Shown piece by piece: positions 2,187-47,637 of a stretch of 64,000 nucleotides of DNA. Position numbers and translations under genes: made by a program. Each line of letters opens with the position of its first letter. The first letter of the stretch is position 1. Source of the DNA: Klebsiella phage KP13-26; the sequence record OP617743.1, one strand, 5' to 3'. The notes below the pieces were generated by a model. It did no database searches and was not told where the DNA came from. It saw nothing but the letters and a program-made list of their open reading frames with translations.

Positions 2187-2606
2187 TTAACAAGTCATGC
2201 TACTAGAGCACCAAGCATGAGTACCTTGGATATAGGCAGAGCATTCGTCGTTACCAATATACACACGGTCATCTGATACAATAAGATCTCTTGTATTTAC
2301 ACCCAGAGACTTCAGCGTATCCACGATGTGTTGGCGTTCTTTATCTTTTCTTTTACGTTCTACAGGATCGATTAGACCGTGTTCATTAATAAATTCTTCA
2401 ATATAATTATCCCCTTCAATAAATTCGTCATTATAATAATCTTCGTAAAGAATTGCATCGTTATGTTCAGGGAGTTCATTCATTTCTTCTAGATATGCCT
2501 GTTTGTCTTCATCACTAGACCAAACACCATCAGCAAACACAATGCGAGCTACTTCATCACCCCAATTATCTTCGAATACTTGCCCAGCCACATATTTATT
2601 CTTCAC
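2187..2606 (-). CDS. acidic protein, WxSSSxxC C-terminal family (paralog 5)
   Basis: Ends ...THAWCSSSMTC; very acidic, D/E/Y-rich. Confidence 0.55.
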   Translation of the reverse strand: MKNKYVAGQVFEDNWGDEVARIVFADGVWSSDEDKQAYLEEMNELPEHNDAILYEDYYNDEFIEGDNYIEEFINEHGLIDPVERKRKDKERQHIVDTLKSLGVNTRDLIVSDDRVYIGNDECSAYIQGTHAWCSSSMTC

Positions 2607-2880
2607 AAGGTATCTCCTCTTCTAATACTGCTTTAATTTTAAATGCTTTACTTCCTAAGTAACCGTCGCAACGGTCTTCATCCCCATAGTGCGAATAAAA
2701 GTCAAATTGTACAGTTGATTCACTCATTAGAAAAATCATATCTGTATGCTTTGTACCTTCGGGAACAATATTTTGGATATGCGGTAGAAGTTTACAATCA
2801 TAAAAACAAAGATCACCCGCACTACCTACTTCATCCCAACCTTCCCAAGACTCCACAAAAGAATGTTCTAAGCCTGCCAT
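2596..2880 (-). CDS. hypothetical protein
   Basis: 94-aa ORF with an 11-nt overlap onto the downstream gene; protein-like composition. Confidence 0.45.
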   Translation of the reverse strand: MAGLEHSFVESWEGWDEVGSAGDLCFYDCKLLPHIQNIVPEGTKHTDMIFLMSESTVQFDFYSHYGDEDRCDGYLGSKAFKIKAVLEEEIPCEE

Positions 2881-2895
2881 ACAACCCTCCTCTAG

Positions 2896-3054
2896 TTAAC
2901 AATCATAAGAAGAACTACGCCAAGAGACATTTACTTCAACATTTTCCCCATCTTCTAAAGTAATGTTGAAATAATCATGCCCTAAACCCTCAGCACGAGC
3001 CATAACAATGGCCTCTTCTAGCTTTTGTGCAATCAGTTGCTCGATAGTTTTCAT
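2896..3054 (-). CDS. small protein (52 aa), WxSSSxxC C-terminal family (paralog 6), missed by the ORF track
   Basis: ATG at 3054 with a GAGGAG SD 7 nt upstream; translation MKTIEQLIAQKLEEAIVMARAEGLGHDYFNITLEDGENVEVNVSWRSSSYDC. Confidence 0.5.
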   Translation of the reverse strand: MKTIEQLIAQKLEEAIVMARAEGLGHDYFNITLEDGENVEVNVSWRSSSYDC

Positions 3055-3077
3055 TTACTTCTCCTCTATTCTAAATA

Positions 3078-3521
3078 TTACACCAATACACTCTTGCTGA
3101 TATCTTCTAAAAGAAAGCTGAATTCTAGAACTAAAAAATCTCCTTCAGAATTACTTTCTATATATACAGAAAAACCAACATCTGTGTTATCCTTAGAGAG
3201 TGGCCCCAAGTGAAGTTTATATTCTTTATGATCTTCTTTTGTATATGTTACTGTATAGAACATATCCCTAAGTAACCCAGCCACAAAACGTTGTTTTTCT
3301 AACGGATTGGTATAAGTTAAAAGCTTCTCTTTTTGCTCCTCATTCAAAGGTCTTTCTACTGTATAGAAAGGAATTTCTTTCTTTTCTTCAGAATTAAGAA
3401 TTACCGTAGAGTTTGTAGAATAAACCCTGTCTTTTAAACCCACCTCGTCTAACTTATCATTTACATATTTAGTTAAAGCAGGTGTTAATTTGAATATCTC
3501 GTTTACTTGTCTTATCGTCAT
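3078..3521 (-). CDS. hypothetical protein
   Basis: 147-aa ORF packed tightly with its neighbours. Confidence 0.5.
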   Translation of the reverse strand: MTIRQVNEIFKLTPALTKYVNDKLDEVGLKDRVYSTNSTVILNSEEKKEIPFYTVERPLNEEQKEKLLTYTNPLEKQRFVAGLLRDMFYTVTYTKEDHKEYKLHLGPLSKDNTDVGFSVYIESNSEGDFLVLEFSFLLEDISKSVLV

Positions 3522-4039
3522 TACCAGGTATCTCCCTTTGGCTTGATAACCTCAACGAAGAAAGAAGTTTCCATTTGCAGAGTATTGTTTAAAATAAACC
3601 CGTATAAAGGATACGCTGTAGTTCCTGCATATTGAATAGTATCAGCAGGAGCAAAATGCACAGCTACTTTTTGTGCTCCGTTATCTAACTCATGAACAAT
3701 TGCACGTAAGATCTCATTCACCATCACGGTAGTGAATGTTTGCAGTACAGTGTTTTCAAATGGAACATACCCTAAGAAATGAAGATTAATATCTTCAATC
3801 TCTTGTTGAGTCAAATCTTTATCCAGTGGATAAAATGGAATAGTATATGCAACGTTATCTTTTGTCAAGAAGACATCACAATTATGATAAAGGAAGTCTA
3901 CTTTGTCCATAACAAAACGAATACCTTGCCAAAGTGTATCTTGTACACGTTCTTGGATAGCCTCAGTTAAATCTACGAGATCGTGATGCATATGACTTAC
4001 ATTAGTACGTTCTCCTCCTCTAAGACATGCTTTAAGCAT
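3521..4039 (-). CDS. hypothetical protein
   Basis: 172-aa ORF whose stop overlaps the next start. Confidence 0.5.
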   Translation of the reverse strand: MLKACLRGGERTNVSHMHHDLVDLTEAIQERVQDTLWQGIRFVMDKVDFLYHNCDVFLTKDNVAYTIPFYPLDKDLTQQEIEDINLHFLGYVPFENTVLQTFTTVMVNEILRAIVHELDNGAQKVAVHFAPADTIQYAGTTAYPLYGFILNNTLQMETSFFVEVIKPKGDTW

Positions 4040-4604
4040 TAATTGCCTCCTCTAAAATAGGTTTAATGAAATCAAATATTTCCCGTTTACTTTTACCTCG
4101 TATGTTAAAGCAAGGAATATTAAACTGTTTTGCTAACATCCATGCAGTTCTAGTCCCTCCTTTTGCATCCCCATTTTTATCTACATCTGAACAGGCCAAT
4201 AAAAATAAAGAGGGAACAGGATTTTCCAAATCTCTTCCTAGCACCTGATGAACATTGCGTTGATGCAATTTCTTACCCCCTTGTGATAACCTATCCCAAG
4301 CAGGATGTATTTCTTTTGCATATTTAACGCTTATAGCGTAGTTCATTGTATCAGGGCTGTCAAGACAAATTTTCTCCCCTGCTATTTCATTACCTTCAAA
4401 TTTAGGCCACGGAATGTAAATTTCTTTGTTATCAGGAAGATTAGACAAGGATACACCATACTCGAATGCAGAATCGGAGCCTCCTGCCTTACCGGATCTT
4501 AACTTAAGCCATTGGGCTAACCATTTAGCGACGGCAACCATTATATCCCATTCTTCATCTGTGATATCACGACTTCCTACACCAGTGTAAAATAATCCCT
4601 CCAT
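4032..4604 (-). CDS. Rossmann-fold nucleotide-binding protein, DprA/Smf (SLOG)-like
   Basis: Motifs YTGVGSR ... GKAGGSDSAFEYG resemble the DprA/SLOG fold; weak call made by eye. Confidence 0.35.
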   Translation of the reverse strand: MEGLFYTGVGSRDITDEEWDIMVAVAKWLAQWLKLRSGKAGGSDSAFEYGVSLSNLPDNKEIYIPWPKFEGNEIAGEKICLDSPDTMNYAISVKYAKEIHPAWDRLSQGGKKLHQRNVHQVLGRDLENPVPSLFLLACSDVDKNGDAKGGTRTAWMLAKQFNIPCFNIRGKSKREIFDFIKPILEEAINA

Positions 4605-4613
4605 CCTATCACC

Positions 4614-4868
4614 TCAGCAGGTTACAGTAAATGGATTACCTGGGGTATAAGGTATTTGTGGATTCTTCCAGATATCCTCGATTTGCTGTTTCCAAATTTC
4701 CCTTAGCTTTGTCACATCTGGATCAATGCTTTCATTAGGAACATCTGTTTCCACCTTAATAATTTCTTCTGACACCAAAATCTCTTTGGCTAGCTCAAGG
4801 TTGTCTGTCTCGATAGTGGTTTCTTTAGTCACTTCACCGACAGTTTCTTTGATTGTTATTTTGTACAT
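4614..4868 (-). CDS. hypothetical protein
   Basis: 84-aa ORF. Confidence 0.45.
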   Translation of the reverse strand: MYKITIKETVGEVTKETTIETDNLELAKEILVSEEIIKVETDVPNESIDPDVTKLREIWKQQIEDIWKNPQIPYTPGNPFTVTC

Positions 4869-5605
4869 TAGTCTTCCTCTAAAGTTGAATAAAACTTAAC
4901 CGTTCCTTGCTCATCAAACCAACTAAATGTCAGATTATTGTTGAAACAAGACCCGGTATCCATATATATACGATTAGCATTCATTAATGGCTTTGGTACA
5001 TAAGAGTGTCCATGAAATACATAGTCTACGCCTAATACTTTAGGCAAAGAAATCCCCTCCTGAGCACAGGAAATCATATCTCTATCCCACATTAAAGACT
5101 CTGCAAAAATATCTTCCTTTTCCTTGGATAATCCCAAATTAGGTATCTCTGTTACTGGTAAATATTCATAAGCAGAAGGATAACCTCCATGTATAAATGC
5201 TAACTTTTTACCTCTATGTTCTACTACTAGAACAACGGGGAGATTTTCTACCATTGTTGCCAATAAACTAACACCATCTTCCCCAAGCTCACTCCAAACA
5301 GTATGACCACCATTCTGATACCAACATTCATAATAATCTCTACTGCCTTCTAACATGCCTCTAATTAGCATATCTTCATGATTACCACGGATAGCAAAAC
5401 GGTTAGACTTACGTGTGAATTCAATTACACATCGCAGATTTTGTTTACCCCTGTCAGTAAGATCTCCGAGAGAAATAACATAATCTGTATCTCTAATTCC
5501 TAGAACTCTTTCTCCTTTTTTATAGAGATCGTAACATCCATGTAAATCCCCTATGATAAATAAATCTTTATCATCCTCCAATTTAATAAATTCATAAAGT
5601 TTCAC
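4868..5605 (-). CDS. Ser/Thr protein phosphatase (calcineurin-like metallophosphoesterase, lambda-PPase type)
   Basis: GDLHG, GDLTDRG and GNHE motifs present. Confidence 0.85.
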   Translation of the reverse strand: MKLYEFIKLEDDKDLFIIGDLHGCYDLYKKGERVLGIRDTDYVISLGDLTDRGKQNLRCVIEFTRKSNRFAIRGNHEDMLIRGMLEGSRDYYECWYQNGGHTVWSELGEDGVSLLATMVENLPVVLVVEHRGKKLAFIHGGYPSAYEYLPVTEIPNLGLSKEKEDIFAESLMWDRDMISCAQEGISLPKVLGVDYVFHGHSYVPKPLMNANRIYMDTGSCFNNNLTFSWFDEQGTVKFYSTLEED

Positions 5606-44868: not shown

Positions 44869-45309
44869 ATGAATATGAGCTTACTAATATCTTTACTGAA
44901 TGCGATAAAGAACAACAAGACGATTAGATATCTTGTAATAGGAGTTATTCTTCTATTAGTTATCGTATTTGGTGCAATACATATTAAAAATAGTATTTAT
45001 GAAGACGGCTATAATGCAGGGGTTGCTAAAGAGCAACAGACACAACAAATTCAACAAGCGAAAGCTAGACAAGATTTTGATACATTGCAAGCTAAAGCTG
45101 ATGCAGATAGATCGGAGTTGAATAATAAAATAGCCAAACTTTCAACTGATACTGAAATTCTAAAAGAACAGTTATCGAAAAAAGAAACTGAACTCCAACA
45201 AGAGGCTAAAGAATATGCAAAAACTACTACTGGCAGCATGTCTTGCTTTGCCCCTAATGATAACGGGCTGCACATCATCAACAAATCATTCCCAACCAGT
45301 TCTCATTGA
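44869..45309 (+). CDS. i-spanin (Rz-like): N-terminal TM plus periplasmic coiled coil
   Basis: TM segment LVIGVILLLVIVFGAI followed by Q/A/K/E-rich coiled-coil heptads; overlaps the o-spanin. Confidence 0.55.
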   Translation: MNMSLLISLLNAIKNNKTIRYLVIGVILLLVIVFGAIHIKNSIYEDGYNAGVAKEQQTQQIQQAKARQDFDTLQAKADADRSELNNKIAKLSTDTEILKEQLSKKETELQQEAKEYAKTTTGSMSCFAPNDNGLHIINKSFPTSSH

Positions 45310-45544
45310 TGAGTGCAAAGCTATTGCAAAAGATGAAATAGCTAGTCCTGATAAGAGCAACCTAGAATCTCCAGAAACACCTGTAATGTATACACAAACT
45401 CAAATTACAAAAGGCGTCTCTAGATCTGAGGTTGTAGATAACCAAACAAAGAACAATGCCCTATGGGAAAAGGATAGAGAAAAGCTGATGGCATTGCAAG
45501 CATACATAAAAACTTTGCAAGATGCCGGTATTATTTCTAAATAG
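45215..45544 (+). CDS. o-spanin (Rz1-like outer-membrane lipoprotein), overlapping the i-spanin out of frame
   Basis: Lipobox LMITG-C after the signal peptide MQKLLLAACLALP; out-of-frame overlap with the i-spanin 3' end. Confidence 0.6.
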   Translation: MQKLLLAACLALPLMITGCTSSTNHSQPVLIDECKAIAKDEIASPDKSNLESPETPVMYTQTQITKGVSRSEVVDNQTKNNALWEKDREKLMALQAYIKTLQDAGIISK

Positions 45545-45552
45545 GAGGAACT

Positions 45553-47637
45553 TTGGCAAGGAAACCAGTTAAGACAAACTTAGCAAATATTGAGATTGAA
45601 GTAAAAGCTCAACCTGGTAAACAAACATTAGCAATGGATTTAATGCCAGAGGTAATGATTTATGGTGGTGCTGCGGGATGCGTTACAGCAGAGACAGAAT
45701 ATTTAACACCATCAGGATGGAAGAGAATTGATCAATACTCAGGAGAAGATATTTATCAATACAATCCAAGAAACAGGAAACTAGAGCTAGTTAGTCCATA
45801 CTTTGTAGAGTATGATACAAAAGATAACTTATATAGAATAACAAATGGTGTGGGTTTATTCCAAGAACTTAGTATGGAACACAGGTTTGTATTCTATAAA
45901 AAGAAAAAATCTAAAAAACATTTTGAGATTTTAGTTGGAGATCTTATTGCATTGCAGCAAGCAGGAGAACCACTTAGAGGGTATGTAGAAAATCCTTTCG
46001 GTAAAAGAGTACCATTTAATATCTCAGGTAAAACTAACACTTATCTAAAAATGCACGAGGTGATGACAAGTGATGATAAAAAATATTGTTTTGAAACTCC
46101 AAGCAGTTATGTTGTCTTTAGACGTGGCGATCATATCTTCGTTACTGGGAATAGTGGCAAGTCTCGTCTACTCCTACTGAAAGCTTTAAAATATGCTTGC
46201 AAAGACCCACTGTTCGGTGGAATCCTATTCCGTAAAAATACAACAGCTCTACGTAAGCCTGGTGGGTTATTTACAGAAGCTAAAAAGCTATATCTGAAAC
46301 TTCAGCCACATGTTCGTGAACAAGCTATGGAGATGGAGTTCAGAGCTACCGGAGGTGGAACATTAAAATTCGACCACTTAGAAAATGATAACGTAACAGC
46401 GGAAACTAACCACCAGGGTACACAATACAGTATGGTAGGTTTCGACGAGTTAACGCATTTTACCCAATATGAAATGCTTTACCTTCTTGGTCGTTTACGT
46501 TCTGAGTCTGCAACATCTTTTATGCTATGCACCTGTAACCCAGATGCAGATAGTTGGGTTATTAATTGGGTACTACCTTACCTGGATGAAGCAGGGTTCC
46601 CACGCGATGACATGTGTGGTAAACAACTATATTTTCTTATTGTAAATGATGAACCGGTATTTGCAGAAGACCCAGAAGAACTAAAGGAAAAGTATCCTGA
46701 AAACTGCTTCATGGAAAACCCAAATACAGGCGAAATAGTTACTATCGAACCGCAGAGCTTTGTATTTATCGGCGGAACTATATTTGATAATCCAGAGCTT
46801 ATACGTCTTAATCCTAAATATCTAGCCTCTTTGAAAGCACAAACCGCAGTGAAAAGAGCGCAGCTCTTAGATGGGTGTTGGTTTGCAAGAGCACAGGAAG
46901 AAAGTTTCTTTAATAGAGAATGGTTGCATGTAATTAAATATTCAGATGTTCCGAATAATATGAAATATATGCGAGCATGGGATAAAGCTGTATCTGTTCC
47001 AACAGAATCATATCGTTATCCAGACTATACCACGTCTGTAAAAATGGGCAAAGATACTGATGGTAATGTCTATATCTTCGGAGATTATGATTACGATGCA
47101 GTAGATGAGAAAAGTAAAATCTTTGGTAGATTTAGAAGATTACCGGGTGAACGAGATAATTTGATTCTTAATCAATGTAAAATTGATGGGGATGAGGTTA
47201 TTGTAGTTCTTCCTAAAGACCCATCTGGTGCAGGTTTGATTGAATATACAGAATCTGCTAAGAAGCTTATTTCTGAAGGTTTCATTGTAAAACCTGATGC
47301 AATGCCAGGGAACAAAAAGAAACTACAGCGTTTTATGCCTTTTAGTAGTGCTTGTCAAAATGGTTTTGTATATATTGTTGAAGACTCTTTCCCAAATAAA
47401 GAAACTTTAGATCACTTTTATAAAGAATTAGAATCTTTCAATGGAGAGAGGTCTACTGCAACACTCAAAGACGATATCCCGGATGCTGCGGCATCTTGTT
47501 TTAATACACTGATGAAAGAGGCTGTATTCAAGGCTGTAGCCATTCCTACGCCACTAGGAGCTACCACAGGATATGGTAAAATGTCTAGTGGAAGTAGGGC
47601 ATCTTTTGGTCAACCTTATAAAATAAGATCAAGATAA
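45553..47637 (+). CDS. terL: terminase large subunit (intein-containing precursor)
   Basis: TTG start with an AGGAGGAAC SD; Walker A split as GGAAG | intein | SGKS; DELTHF Walker B; C-terminal nuclease domain. Confidence 0.8.
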   Translation: MARKPVKTNLANIEIEVKAQPGKQTLAMDLMPEVMIYGGAAGCVTAETEYLTPSGWKRIDQYSGEDIYQYNPRNRKLELVSPYFVEYDTKDNLYRITNGVGLFQELSMEHRFVFYKKKKSKKHFEILVGDLIALQQAGEPLRGYVENPFGKRVPFNISGKTNTYLKMHEVMTSDDKKYCFETPSSYVVFRRGDHIFVTGNSGKSRLLLLKALKYACKDPLFGGILFRKNTTALRKPGGLFTEAKKLYLKLQPHVREQAMEMEFRATGGGTLKFDHLENDNVTAETNHQGTQYSMVGFDELTHFTQYEMLYLLGRLRSESATSFMLCTCNPDADSWVINWVLPYLDEAGFPRDDMCGKQLYFLIVNDEPVFAEDPEELKEKYPENCFMENPNTGEIVTIEPQSFVFIGGTIFDNPELIRLNPKYLASLKAQTAVKRAQLLDGCWFARAQEESFFNREWLHVIKYSDVPNNMKYMRAWDKAVSVPTESYRYPDYTTSVKMGKDTDGNVYIFGDYDYDAVDEKSKIFGRFRRLPGERDNLILNQCKIDGDEVIVVLPKDPSGAGLIEYTESAKKLISEGFIVKPDAMPGNKKKLQRFMPFSSACQNGFVYIVEDSFPNKETLDHFYKELESFNGERSTATLKDDIPDAAASCFNTLMKEAVFKAVAIPTPLGATTGYGKMSSGSRASFGQPYKIRSR
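45679..46152 (+). other. mini-intein (158 aa) inserted in the TerL P-loop
   Basis: Starts with Cys (CVTAETEY ...) and ends ... HIFVTGN, followed by Ser; excising it reconstitutes YGGAAG-SGKSRLL (GxxxxGKS). There is no room for a homing-endonuclease domain. Confidence 0.65.

Follow-up and report, generated by a model that had tools for sequence, protein, structure and literature searches.

How can the large terminase (TerL) of a viable phage act as an ATPase when no contiguous Walker A motif is encoded in its gene? The question is raised by terL of Klebsiella phage KP13-26 (OP617743.1), which is found on the plus strand at 45553–47637 of the 64,000-nucleotide stretch analysed here (the window; all features below lie on the same strand) and stands in the list of open reading frames (ORFs) as 694 codons plus stop, with a predicted precursor of 79.0 kDa. 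No match to [GA]xxxxGK[ST] is present across the whole 694-residue precursor. Deletion of residues 43–200 in silico yields a 536-residue TerL with a single GAAGSGKS at residue 39, reading YGGAAGSGKSRLL, and restoration of a Walker A motif by removal of exactly these residues is far beyond chance. The 42-residue N-extein (45553–45678) ends in the first half of the motif, G-A-A-G (45667–45678), followed by an insert of 158 residues (45679–46152) and by the C-extein of 494 residues plus stop (46153–47637), which opens with Ser+1 (codon AGT, 46153–46155) and the second half, S-G-K-S (46153–46164). Codons read directly place the boundaries exactly where the original prediction, a note made from the DNA alone, had drawn them, with Cys at the start of the insert and Asn before Ser, and the deletion likewise bears out its claim that excision to 536 residues recreates a P-loop absent elsewhere in the protein. 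Pfam Terminase_6N matches the precursor over residues 201–458 only (E=1.8e-17).

TerL homologs with and without an insert define the same boundaries. The uninterrupted YGGAAGSGKSRLL occurs in dozens of 120 TerL homologs, and intein-less orthologs that are colinear with the in-silico spliced TerL read YGGAAGSGKSRL[IL]L. The nearest of these align with it end to end at 61–63% identity with only 3–7 gaps, and thus the continuous P-loop alleles that were proposed for comparison do exist. Other homologs carry inserts of 146, 158–159, 246 or 301–328 residues at the identical position, every one of which begins with Cys and ends in [TS]GN before Ser, with the motif C1 ... KYC ... [TS]GN|S. In an alignment of 24 short inserts, with identities down to 24–31%, the residues C1, G13-W14, H68, D132, K135-Y136-C137, G157-N158 and S+1 are invariant (numbered from the first residue of the insert). 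Members were extracted from whole-TerL matches, a word-indexed homolog search with the insert alone having given 5 close fragments. Between the window and two Justusliebigvirus and one Phapecoctavirus genomes, the ratio of nonsynonymous to synonymous substitution (dN/dS) is 0.055–0.075 for the intein and 0.04–0.07 for the exteins, with near-saturated synonymous divergence, and the corresponding amino-acid identities are 85–87% and 87–89%. A frameshift or pseudogene was rejected because the terL ORF is intact and conserved, and an intron because the insert is in frame, translated and evolving as a protein (dN/dS about 0.06).

The fold of the insert is that of an intein. An AlphaFold2 model of the 158 residues, built on the alignment, has a pLDDT of 93.7 and comprises one compact domain with the HINT fold, and the top 50 Foldseek matches of this model in the PDB are all inteins, BIL domains or Hedgehog Hint domains. 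The best match is the AceL NrdHF intein (6ZGQ; TM-score 0.71–0.73), an intein proven biochemically, which is also reached by a profile of the 24 inserts against the PDB at E=3.8e-11. Full-length hhalign of the insert family against AceL NrdHF, using the sequence from the paper supplement, gives 97.9% probability (E=4.6e-13), places C137 on C124 and TGNS on TGNS, and thereby sets the C-terminal register. A profile of the C-terminal 38 residues alone, which matched spurious 'DGKKYYF' cell-wall-binding repeats of clostridial toxins in the PDB, was discarded, and single-sequence phmmer of the insert against the PDB returned noise only.

The sequence blocks of an intein can be located along the insert. 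Cys1 (block A:1; codon 43, TGC, 45679–45681), the candidate first nucleophile, and the block B motif [TS]xxH, here S65-x-x-H68, are both invariant or near-invariant; block B as a whole reads S65-M-E-H68-R69-F70 (45871–45888), with Ser at B:7, His at B:10, Arg at B:11 and Phe at B:12. Cys137 (block F:4, 46087–46089) occupies the class 3 branch-point position and is followed by P141 (C-x3-P); it is invariant in the 24-insert alignment, as is Cys1. Block G, T156-G157-N158 (codons 198–200, ACT GGG AAT, 46144–46152), supplies Thr at G:5, Gly at G:6 in place of the penultimate His that is common but not obligatory in inteins, and the terminal Asn at G:7, directly before Ser+1 (residue 201 of the precursor). 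BIL domains are without a +1 nucleophile and are placed in variable, non-conserved regions of their host proteins (PMC4031507); here, Ser+1 is conserved and the insertion lies in the most conserved motif of TerL.

Weighing against an intein, Pfam Intein_splicing matches the insert below threshold only (E=0.061, 13.6 bits versus a cutoff of 35.8), an NCBIfam scan of the insert gives no match, and the His residues at F:13 and G:6, the usual helpers of Asn cyclisation, are both missing. The alignment to intein hidden Markov models (HMMs) that had been suggested as a check thus succeeds in part, failing with the curated Pfam and NCBIfam models and succeeding with the profile of the clade, which reaches 6ZGQ. 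Since ATPase activity is impossible for a terminase whose P-loop is split, viable phages must, we infer, remove the insert; this is supported by the splicing of mycobacteriophage TerL inteins (PMC5050341). The location of the TerL insert, its fold, homology and conservation, and the purifying selection acting on it are direct observations. TerL residues 43–200 very probably constitute a functional endonuclease-less mini-intein (158 residues, 18.5 kDa, isoelectric point 8.7, a single HINT domain), which splices itself out to leave a 60.5-kDa TerL and an 18.5-kDa intein.

The TerL intein belongs to a large clade with an unusual signature. A full HMMER profile scan of 1.84 billion cluster representatives (50% identity) with the intein-clade profile matches 9515 proteins at E<=1e-3, of which 1915 remain at E<=1e-10, and residue frequencies were taken from 195 inteins parsed from the best 150 proteins. 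Cys is found at A:1 in 98% (192/195) and at F:4 in 98% (191/195), His at B:10 in 194/195 (one unaligned), Arg at B:11 in 54%, Thr or Ser at G:5 in 92%, Gly at G:6 in 97% and Asn at G:7 in 100% (195/195). Position B:12 is V, M, I, L or F, with Trp in only 3/195, while the +1 residue is Ser (57%), Cys (27%) or Thr (16%), one of these three being present in 194/195. In rare cases K, A or P stands in place of Cys1 while Cys F:4 is retained, and in others, equally rare, Cys F:4 is replaced by G or S while Cys1 is retained. In 87 of the 195, the intein directly precedes [STC]GK[ST]; many clade proteins hold 2–3 intein copies. With Gly at G:6 in 97% of members, the penultimate Gly is a hallmark of this mostly phage-borne clade. 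The original prediction had called it an uncommon but documented variant, of which the second half stands, since Gly-Asn inteins splice, but not the first.

Class 3 inteins have Cys(F:4)-His(B:10)-Thr(G:5) as their catalytic triad (PMC7664689, PMC2807308). The TerL intein has both Cys at F:4 (C137) and Thr at G:5 (T156), but position 1 is an invariant Cys and B:12 is F70 rather than Trp, neither of which conforms to class 3, and the Cys at position 1, 98% conserved in the clade, is a candidate for forming the linear thioester of class 1. Judged from its sequence, the active site is unusual in having two cysteines, Cys1 and the class 3-like Cys137, which are the only two in the 158 residues.

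Among solved structures, AceL NrdHF alone is significantly similar in sequence to the TerL intein, and the two can be compared residue by residue. Through block B they share the same numbering (S65/H68/R69/M70 in AceL, where the motif reads S65-P-N-H68-R69-M70, and S65/H68/R69/F70 in TerL), and C124-x3-P128 and T144-G145-N146|S of AceL correspond to C137-x3-P141 and T156-G157-N158|S. Both are without the F:13 and G:6 histidines, and AceL NrdHF, which also comes from a phage-like context, is class 3 despite Met at B:12. It splices via a branched thioester on Cys124, Arg69 aids Asn cyclisation and G145H abolishes activity (Hoffmann et al. 2020, PMC7891396). This contrasts with the TerL intein in that AceL NrdHF has Ala1, and thus no N-terminal nucleophile, where TerL has Cys1; its two natural halves flank a GIY-YIG endonuclease gene and its host protein is a ribonucleotide reductase, whereas the TerL intein is in one piece within the Walker A of TerL. 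Of these two inteins, the class 3 mechanism is proven for AceL NrdHF only.

Three further systems are similar, but distinct. The intein of the mycobacteriophage Bethlehem RDF (phosphoesterase) bears the same signature, C1 ... VWC296LRVP ... LTG316N|S (sequence checked), splices to completion in an E. coli reporter, is slowed by G316H and was classed as class 1 (Kelley et al. 2016, PMC5050341). It is distant in sequence from the TerL intein, matching the family profile weakly (29 bits, two blocks in register), has 317 residues with a LAGLIDADG endonuclease, and occupies another site in another host protein. The TerL1-a/b inteins do interrupt the Walker A of a large terminase, that of mycobacteriophages, where neither the ATPase site nor the pentamer can form without splicing, and splicing has been demonstrated for representatives of other TerL intein sites, TerL1-b among them (PMC5050341); the description of terminase P-loops as an intein hot-spot is accordingly well founded. 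Their host proteins belong to Terminase_1, whereas the window TerL belongs to Terminase_6, and TerL1-a lies between Lys and Thr of GK|T, with the window intein three residues upstream (G|SGKS). Finally, the WCT class 3 inteins (MP-Be DnaB, Msm/Mch DnaBi1) share the triad of Cys F:4, Thr G:5 and His B:10 with the TerL intein; they have a preference for Ser/Thr at +1 and for insertion into the P-loops of ATPases derived from phages (PMC2807308, PMC7664689). Unlike the TerL intein, they have no N-terminal nucleophile, possess Trp at B:12 and keep the penultimate His, and the likeness is at the level of the fold only (Foldseek E about 6e-4 to 4e-3, 10–13% identity) and not significant by sequence.

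That the TerL intein splices, and by which steps, we infer as follows. With its P-loop divided between Gly42 and Ser201 (GAAG|SGKS), the 79-kDa precursor would neither bind nor hydrolyse ATP as a terminase. After translation, the intein would fold and excise itself without cofactors, releasing the 60.5-kDa TerL with an intact GAAGSGKS and the free 18.5-kDa intein; the predicted junction peptide of the spliced protein is IYGGAAGSGKSR, which contains GGAAGSGK. Splicing would begin with a cysteine thioester at the N-terminal junction, for which Cys1 is the likelier nucleophile (the class 1 route), while the Cys137-His68-Thr156 triad may assist, or may serve as a relay or alternative nucleophile. 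The N-extein would then be passed to the hydroxyl of Ser+1, and Asn158 would cyclise and cut the C-terminal junction without a penultimate or F:13 His, Arg69 (B:11) probably polarising the scissile carbonyl, by analogy with Arg69 of AceL NrdHF. A spontaneous O-to-N acyl shift would finally restore a native peptide bond. Cys1 is favoured as the first nucleophile by its 98% conservation in a clade whose members have diverged deeply, although it counts against this assignment that the only solved relative, AceL NrdHF, uses its block F cysteine as nucleophile. We lean slightly towards initiation at Cys1 with Cys137 assisting, and consider it a lesser but real prospect that Cys137 forms a covalent intermediate.

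The alternative order of events follows class 3, with Cys137, activated by His68 and Thr156, attacking the N-terminal junction and passing a branched thioester on to Ser+1, such that Cys1 is dispensable or auxiliary. This route is what the nearest solved and tested relative would predict, since AceL NrdHF is class 3 and shares H68-R69-hydrophobic, C(F:4)-x3-P and T-G-N|S, and it fits with the conservation of Cys F:4 (98%) and Thr/Ser G:5 (92%) in the clade and with the rare members that retain Cys F:4 when Cys1 is K, A or P. The converse members, in which Cys F:4 is Gly or Ser and Cys1 is retained, speak the other way, as does Phe in place of Trp at B:12, and 98% conservation of Cys1 among members less than 30% identical is unexpected for a dispensable residue. 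Tori and Perler reportedly found in 2011 that some class 3-type inteins keeping Ser1/Cys1 still use the class 3 route. Ser or Thr at +1, found in 73% of clade members, is a preference noted for class 3 (PMC2807308); on the other hand, Kelley et al. treated the Bethlehem RDF intein, of the same signature, as class 1 (PMC5050341), and the operational definition of Hoffmann et al. leaves out Cys1 inteins (PMC7891396). Overall, we regard the class 3 route as possible but rather unlikely for the TerL intein. A little more doubtful still is a reading that combines class 1 and class 3 in one dual-cysteine intein: Cys1 and Cys137 would both be acylated, either as a relay from Cys1 via Cys137 to Ser+1 or as two redundant entry points, and the clade with Cys1, Cys F:4 and Thr-Gly-Asn would be the ancestral state that gave rise to the class 3 chemistry of AceL NrdHF by loss of Cys1, independently of the WCT lineage. 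If this were true, a Cys1–Cys137 disulfide could make terminase maturation redox-sensitive, such a trap being conceivable because the intein has no other cysteines.

Two further alternatives concern what the insert does rather than how it splices. TerL maturation and packaging could be gated by redox or stress, for example through a reversible Cys1–Cys137 disulfide, an idea to which the two cysteines, both catalytic-site residues, lend themselves. Disulfide-bonded precursor conformers form in the G316H mutant of the RDF intein (PMC5050341), and conditional splicing and disulfide-trapped precursors are described for other inteins (PMC6195587). The presence of the element in all 133 genomes found with the full insert, under strong purifying selection, is compatible with such a checkpoint but equally expected of any endonuclease-less intein in an essential gene; moreover, in E. 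coli, whose cytoplasm is reducing, splicing of the relatives tested is rapid and complete. A checkpoint is thus improbable, and the suggestion in the original prediction that splicing is a regulatory or conditional step finds no support, the data fitting equally a fixed endonuclease-less selfish element. The sub-threshold curated HMMs and the missing penultimate and F:13 histidines would suit a degenerate, non-splicing Hint-like domain or a cleavage-only domain of BIL type, with the terminase working with the insert in place or being supplied otherwise. However, the precursor has no Walker A, cleavage alone would give a C-extein without half its P-loop, and there is a single TerL-like locus per genome in more than 130 viable phages. 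The catalytic positions are all invariant at a dN/dS of about 0.06, conservation extends to the terminal Asn and to the nucleophile at +1, in contrast to BIL domains (PMC4031507), and inteins of the same signature splice in experiments. Loss of splicing is highly improbable on these grounds, and we retain the functional mini-intein as our interpretation.

The phage of the window is a phi92-like myovirus (Stephanstirmvirinae, Justusliebigvirus). Its TerL shares 99% identity with the TerL proteins of Klebsiella phages KP2025 and phi1_175008, and 88.9% with phi92 gp119. In total, 133 phage records contain the insert at full length, the TerL locus being single in each genome that has it, and among the matches no TerL at >=80% identity without the insert was found. 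The intein is present in every full-length Stephanstirmvirinae-type TerL found and would be inherited vertically. A fixed intein without an endonuclease would have to keep splicing because its host gene, terL, is essential and an active terminase is selected. The family HMM, run against all six-frame ORFs of the window, revealed no second intein of the same clade. With regard to other elements in related phages, the S5 table on the BASEL phages Bas60 and Bas62 lists 2 inteins and 1 intron for PaulScherrer and 1 intein and 1 intron for JohannJBalmer (PMC8594841); these elements vary from one phi92-like phage to another and are not the TerL intein, which is fixed.

Longer members of the family indicate where the TerL intein came from. 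The relatives of 301–328 residues have an extra centre of about 170 residues with the LAGLIDADG-like motifs LRLQVAVMADG and EVxHWDGS, and their LAGLIDADG assignment is based on these motifs together with Pfam matches. LAGLIDADG_3 reaches the Pfam threshold in 2/10 family proteins and is sub-threshold in 1 more, these being matches per protein that are not mapped to intein coordinates; the central region of the long form scanned separately is sub-threshold for LAGLIDADG_3, and an AlphaFold2 model of a 328-residue member, built on a 4-sequence alignment, has a pLDDT of only 53.9. Since the TerL intein of the window is a single domain lacking this centre, whereas its long relatives have a LAGLIDADG-like one, it is best described as a mini-intein that lost its endonuclease, in agreement with the original prediction of a mini-intein without an endonuclease domain. 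The same intein family is found in the P-loop of a Pseudomonas phage primase/helicase (GSASG|C...TGN|TGKST), in a Corynebacterium phage RtcB ligase, as the long form in TerL of an Avunavirus coliphage, and also in UvrD, SbcC/Rad50 and SF2 helicases, among others. Occurrence in unrelated host proteins is typical of inteins. The TerL intein would descend from LAGLIDADG inteins that homed into the 'G|[STC]GK[ST]' P-loop codons of phage ATPases, the endonuclease being lost subsequently.

Some relatives are annotated in pieces or are associated with further mobile elements. In Escherichia phage 19-1-2 (Avunavirus; 2411–4413 and 4470–5156), TerL carries a long LAGLIDADG-like intein at the same G|SGKS site, and terL is annotated as two coding sequences (CDS) followed by an HNH homing endonuclease gene. 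The primase/helicase CDS of Pseudomonas phage KIL3 (1430–4231), whose helicase P-loop holds an intein of the clade, is recorded as a join of two pieces, and so is the DNA polymerase CDS next to it entered as a join; inteins may have been taken for introns in the annotation of KIL3. Klebsiella phage FKP3 (PP895363, 2365–3768) has a 99.6%-identical TerL gene that is likewise interrupted, at a point corresponding to about codon 287 of the window terL (after it, near nucleotide 46413), by some 1.3 kb of inserted DNA containing small ORFs and one for an HNH endonuclease. This insertion, which the window terL does not have, is probably an intron or a free-standing homing-endonuclease cassette, and its presence in a near-identical gene makes terL a target for two different kinds of mobile element.

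Within the window, terL is placed between the spanin genes and the portal gene. A Shine-Dalgarno sequence, AGGAGG (45543–45548), is read 4 nt upstream of the TTG start codon, for which orthologs use GTG at the same codon. The overlapping ORFs directly upstream, 44869–45309 and 45215–45544, are the counterparts of genes that relatives have annotated as Rz-like i-spanin and o-spanin, and the second of them contains LMITGC, an LxxC signal resembling that of lipoproteins. In base composition, the intein is richer in AT than its surroundings, with a GC content of 33.3% compared with 38.4% for terL and 39.2% for the window, and at third codon positions (GC3) the difference from terL is slight (23.4% versus 26.6%).

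While inteins in terminase P-loops are well documented as a kind, this particular TerL intein appears to be unrecorded. No intein feature is present in the three related records inspected or among the feature names of all tblastn matches, and the terL CDS in those records is named terminase, hypothetical protein or, once, 'large terminase with endonuclease'. Among the members of four clusters totalling 226 sequences whose names were read, none mentions an intein. The BASEL table gives 0 inteins for EmilieFrey, a phage that carries the TerL intein, and a 2024 paper stating that no inteins have been reported in coliphages describes phage KMB37, which is itself a carrier. In the open-access literature we found none that links inteins with Stephanstirmvirinae, an earlier mention elsewhere being possible. 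In a small sample comprising the window TerL, 6 TerL homologs and 10 clade proteins, the Pfam intein models never reach threshold, and because standard HMMs miss its inteins the clade is probably under-annotated in phage genomes. In addition, Hoffmann et al. defined class 3 operationally for their census in such a way that inteins with Cys1 did not qualify (PMC7891396), and the clade with Cys1 and Cys F:4 would therefore be left out of it.

More than 130 deposited Justusliebigvirus and Phapecoctavirus genomes carry the intein, including phi92, BASEL phages and many therapeutic candidates. The mature TerL of these phages would have 536 rather than 694 residues, which is relevant to structural, proteomic and phylogenetic work. 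A compact intein of 158 residues with Ser+1, which presumably splices in enterobacterial hosts, could become a tool for protein engineering. Lastly, the clade unites an N-terminal Cys with the Cys-His-Thr triad of class 3, and its sole solved member is class 3, making it a natural system in which to study how class 3 inteins evolved.

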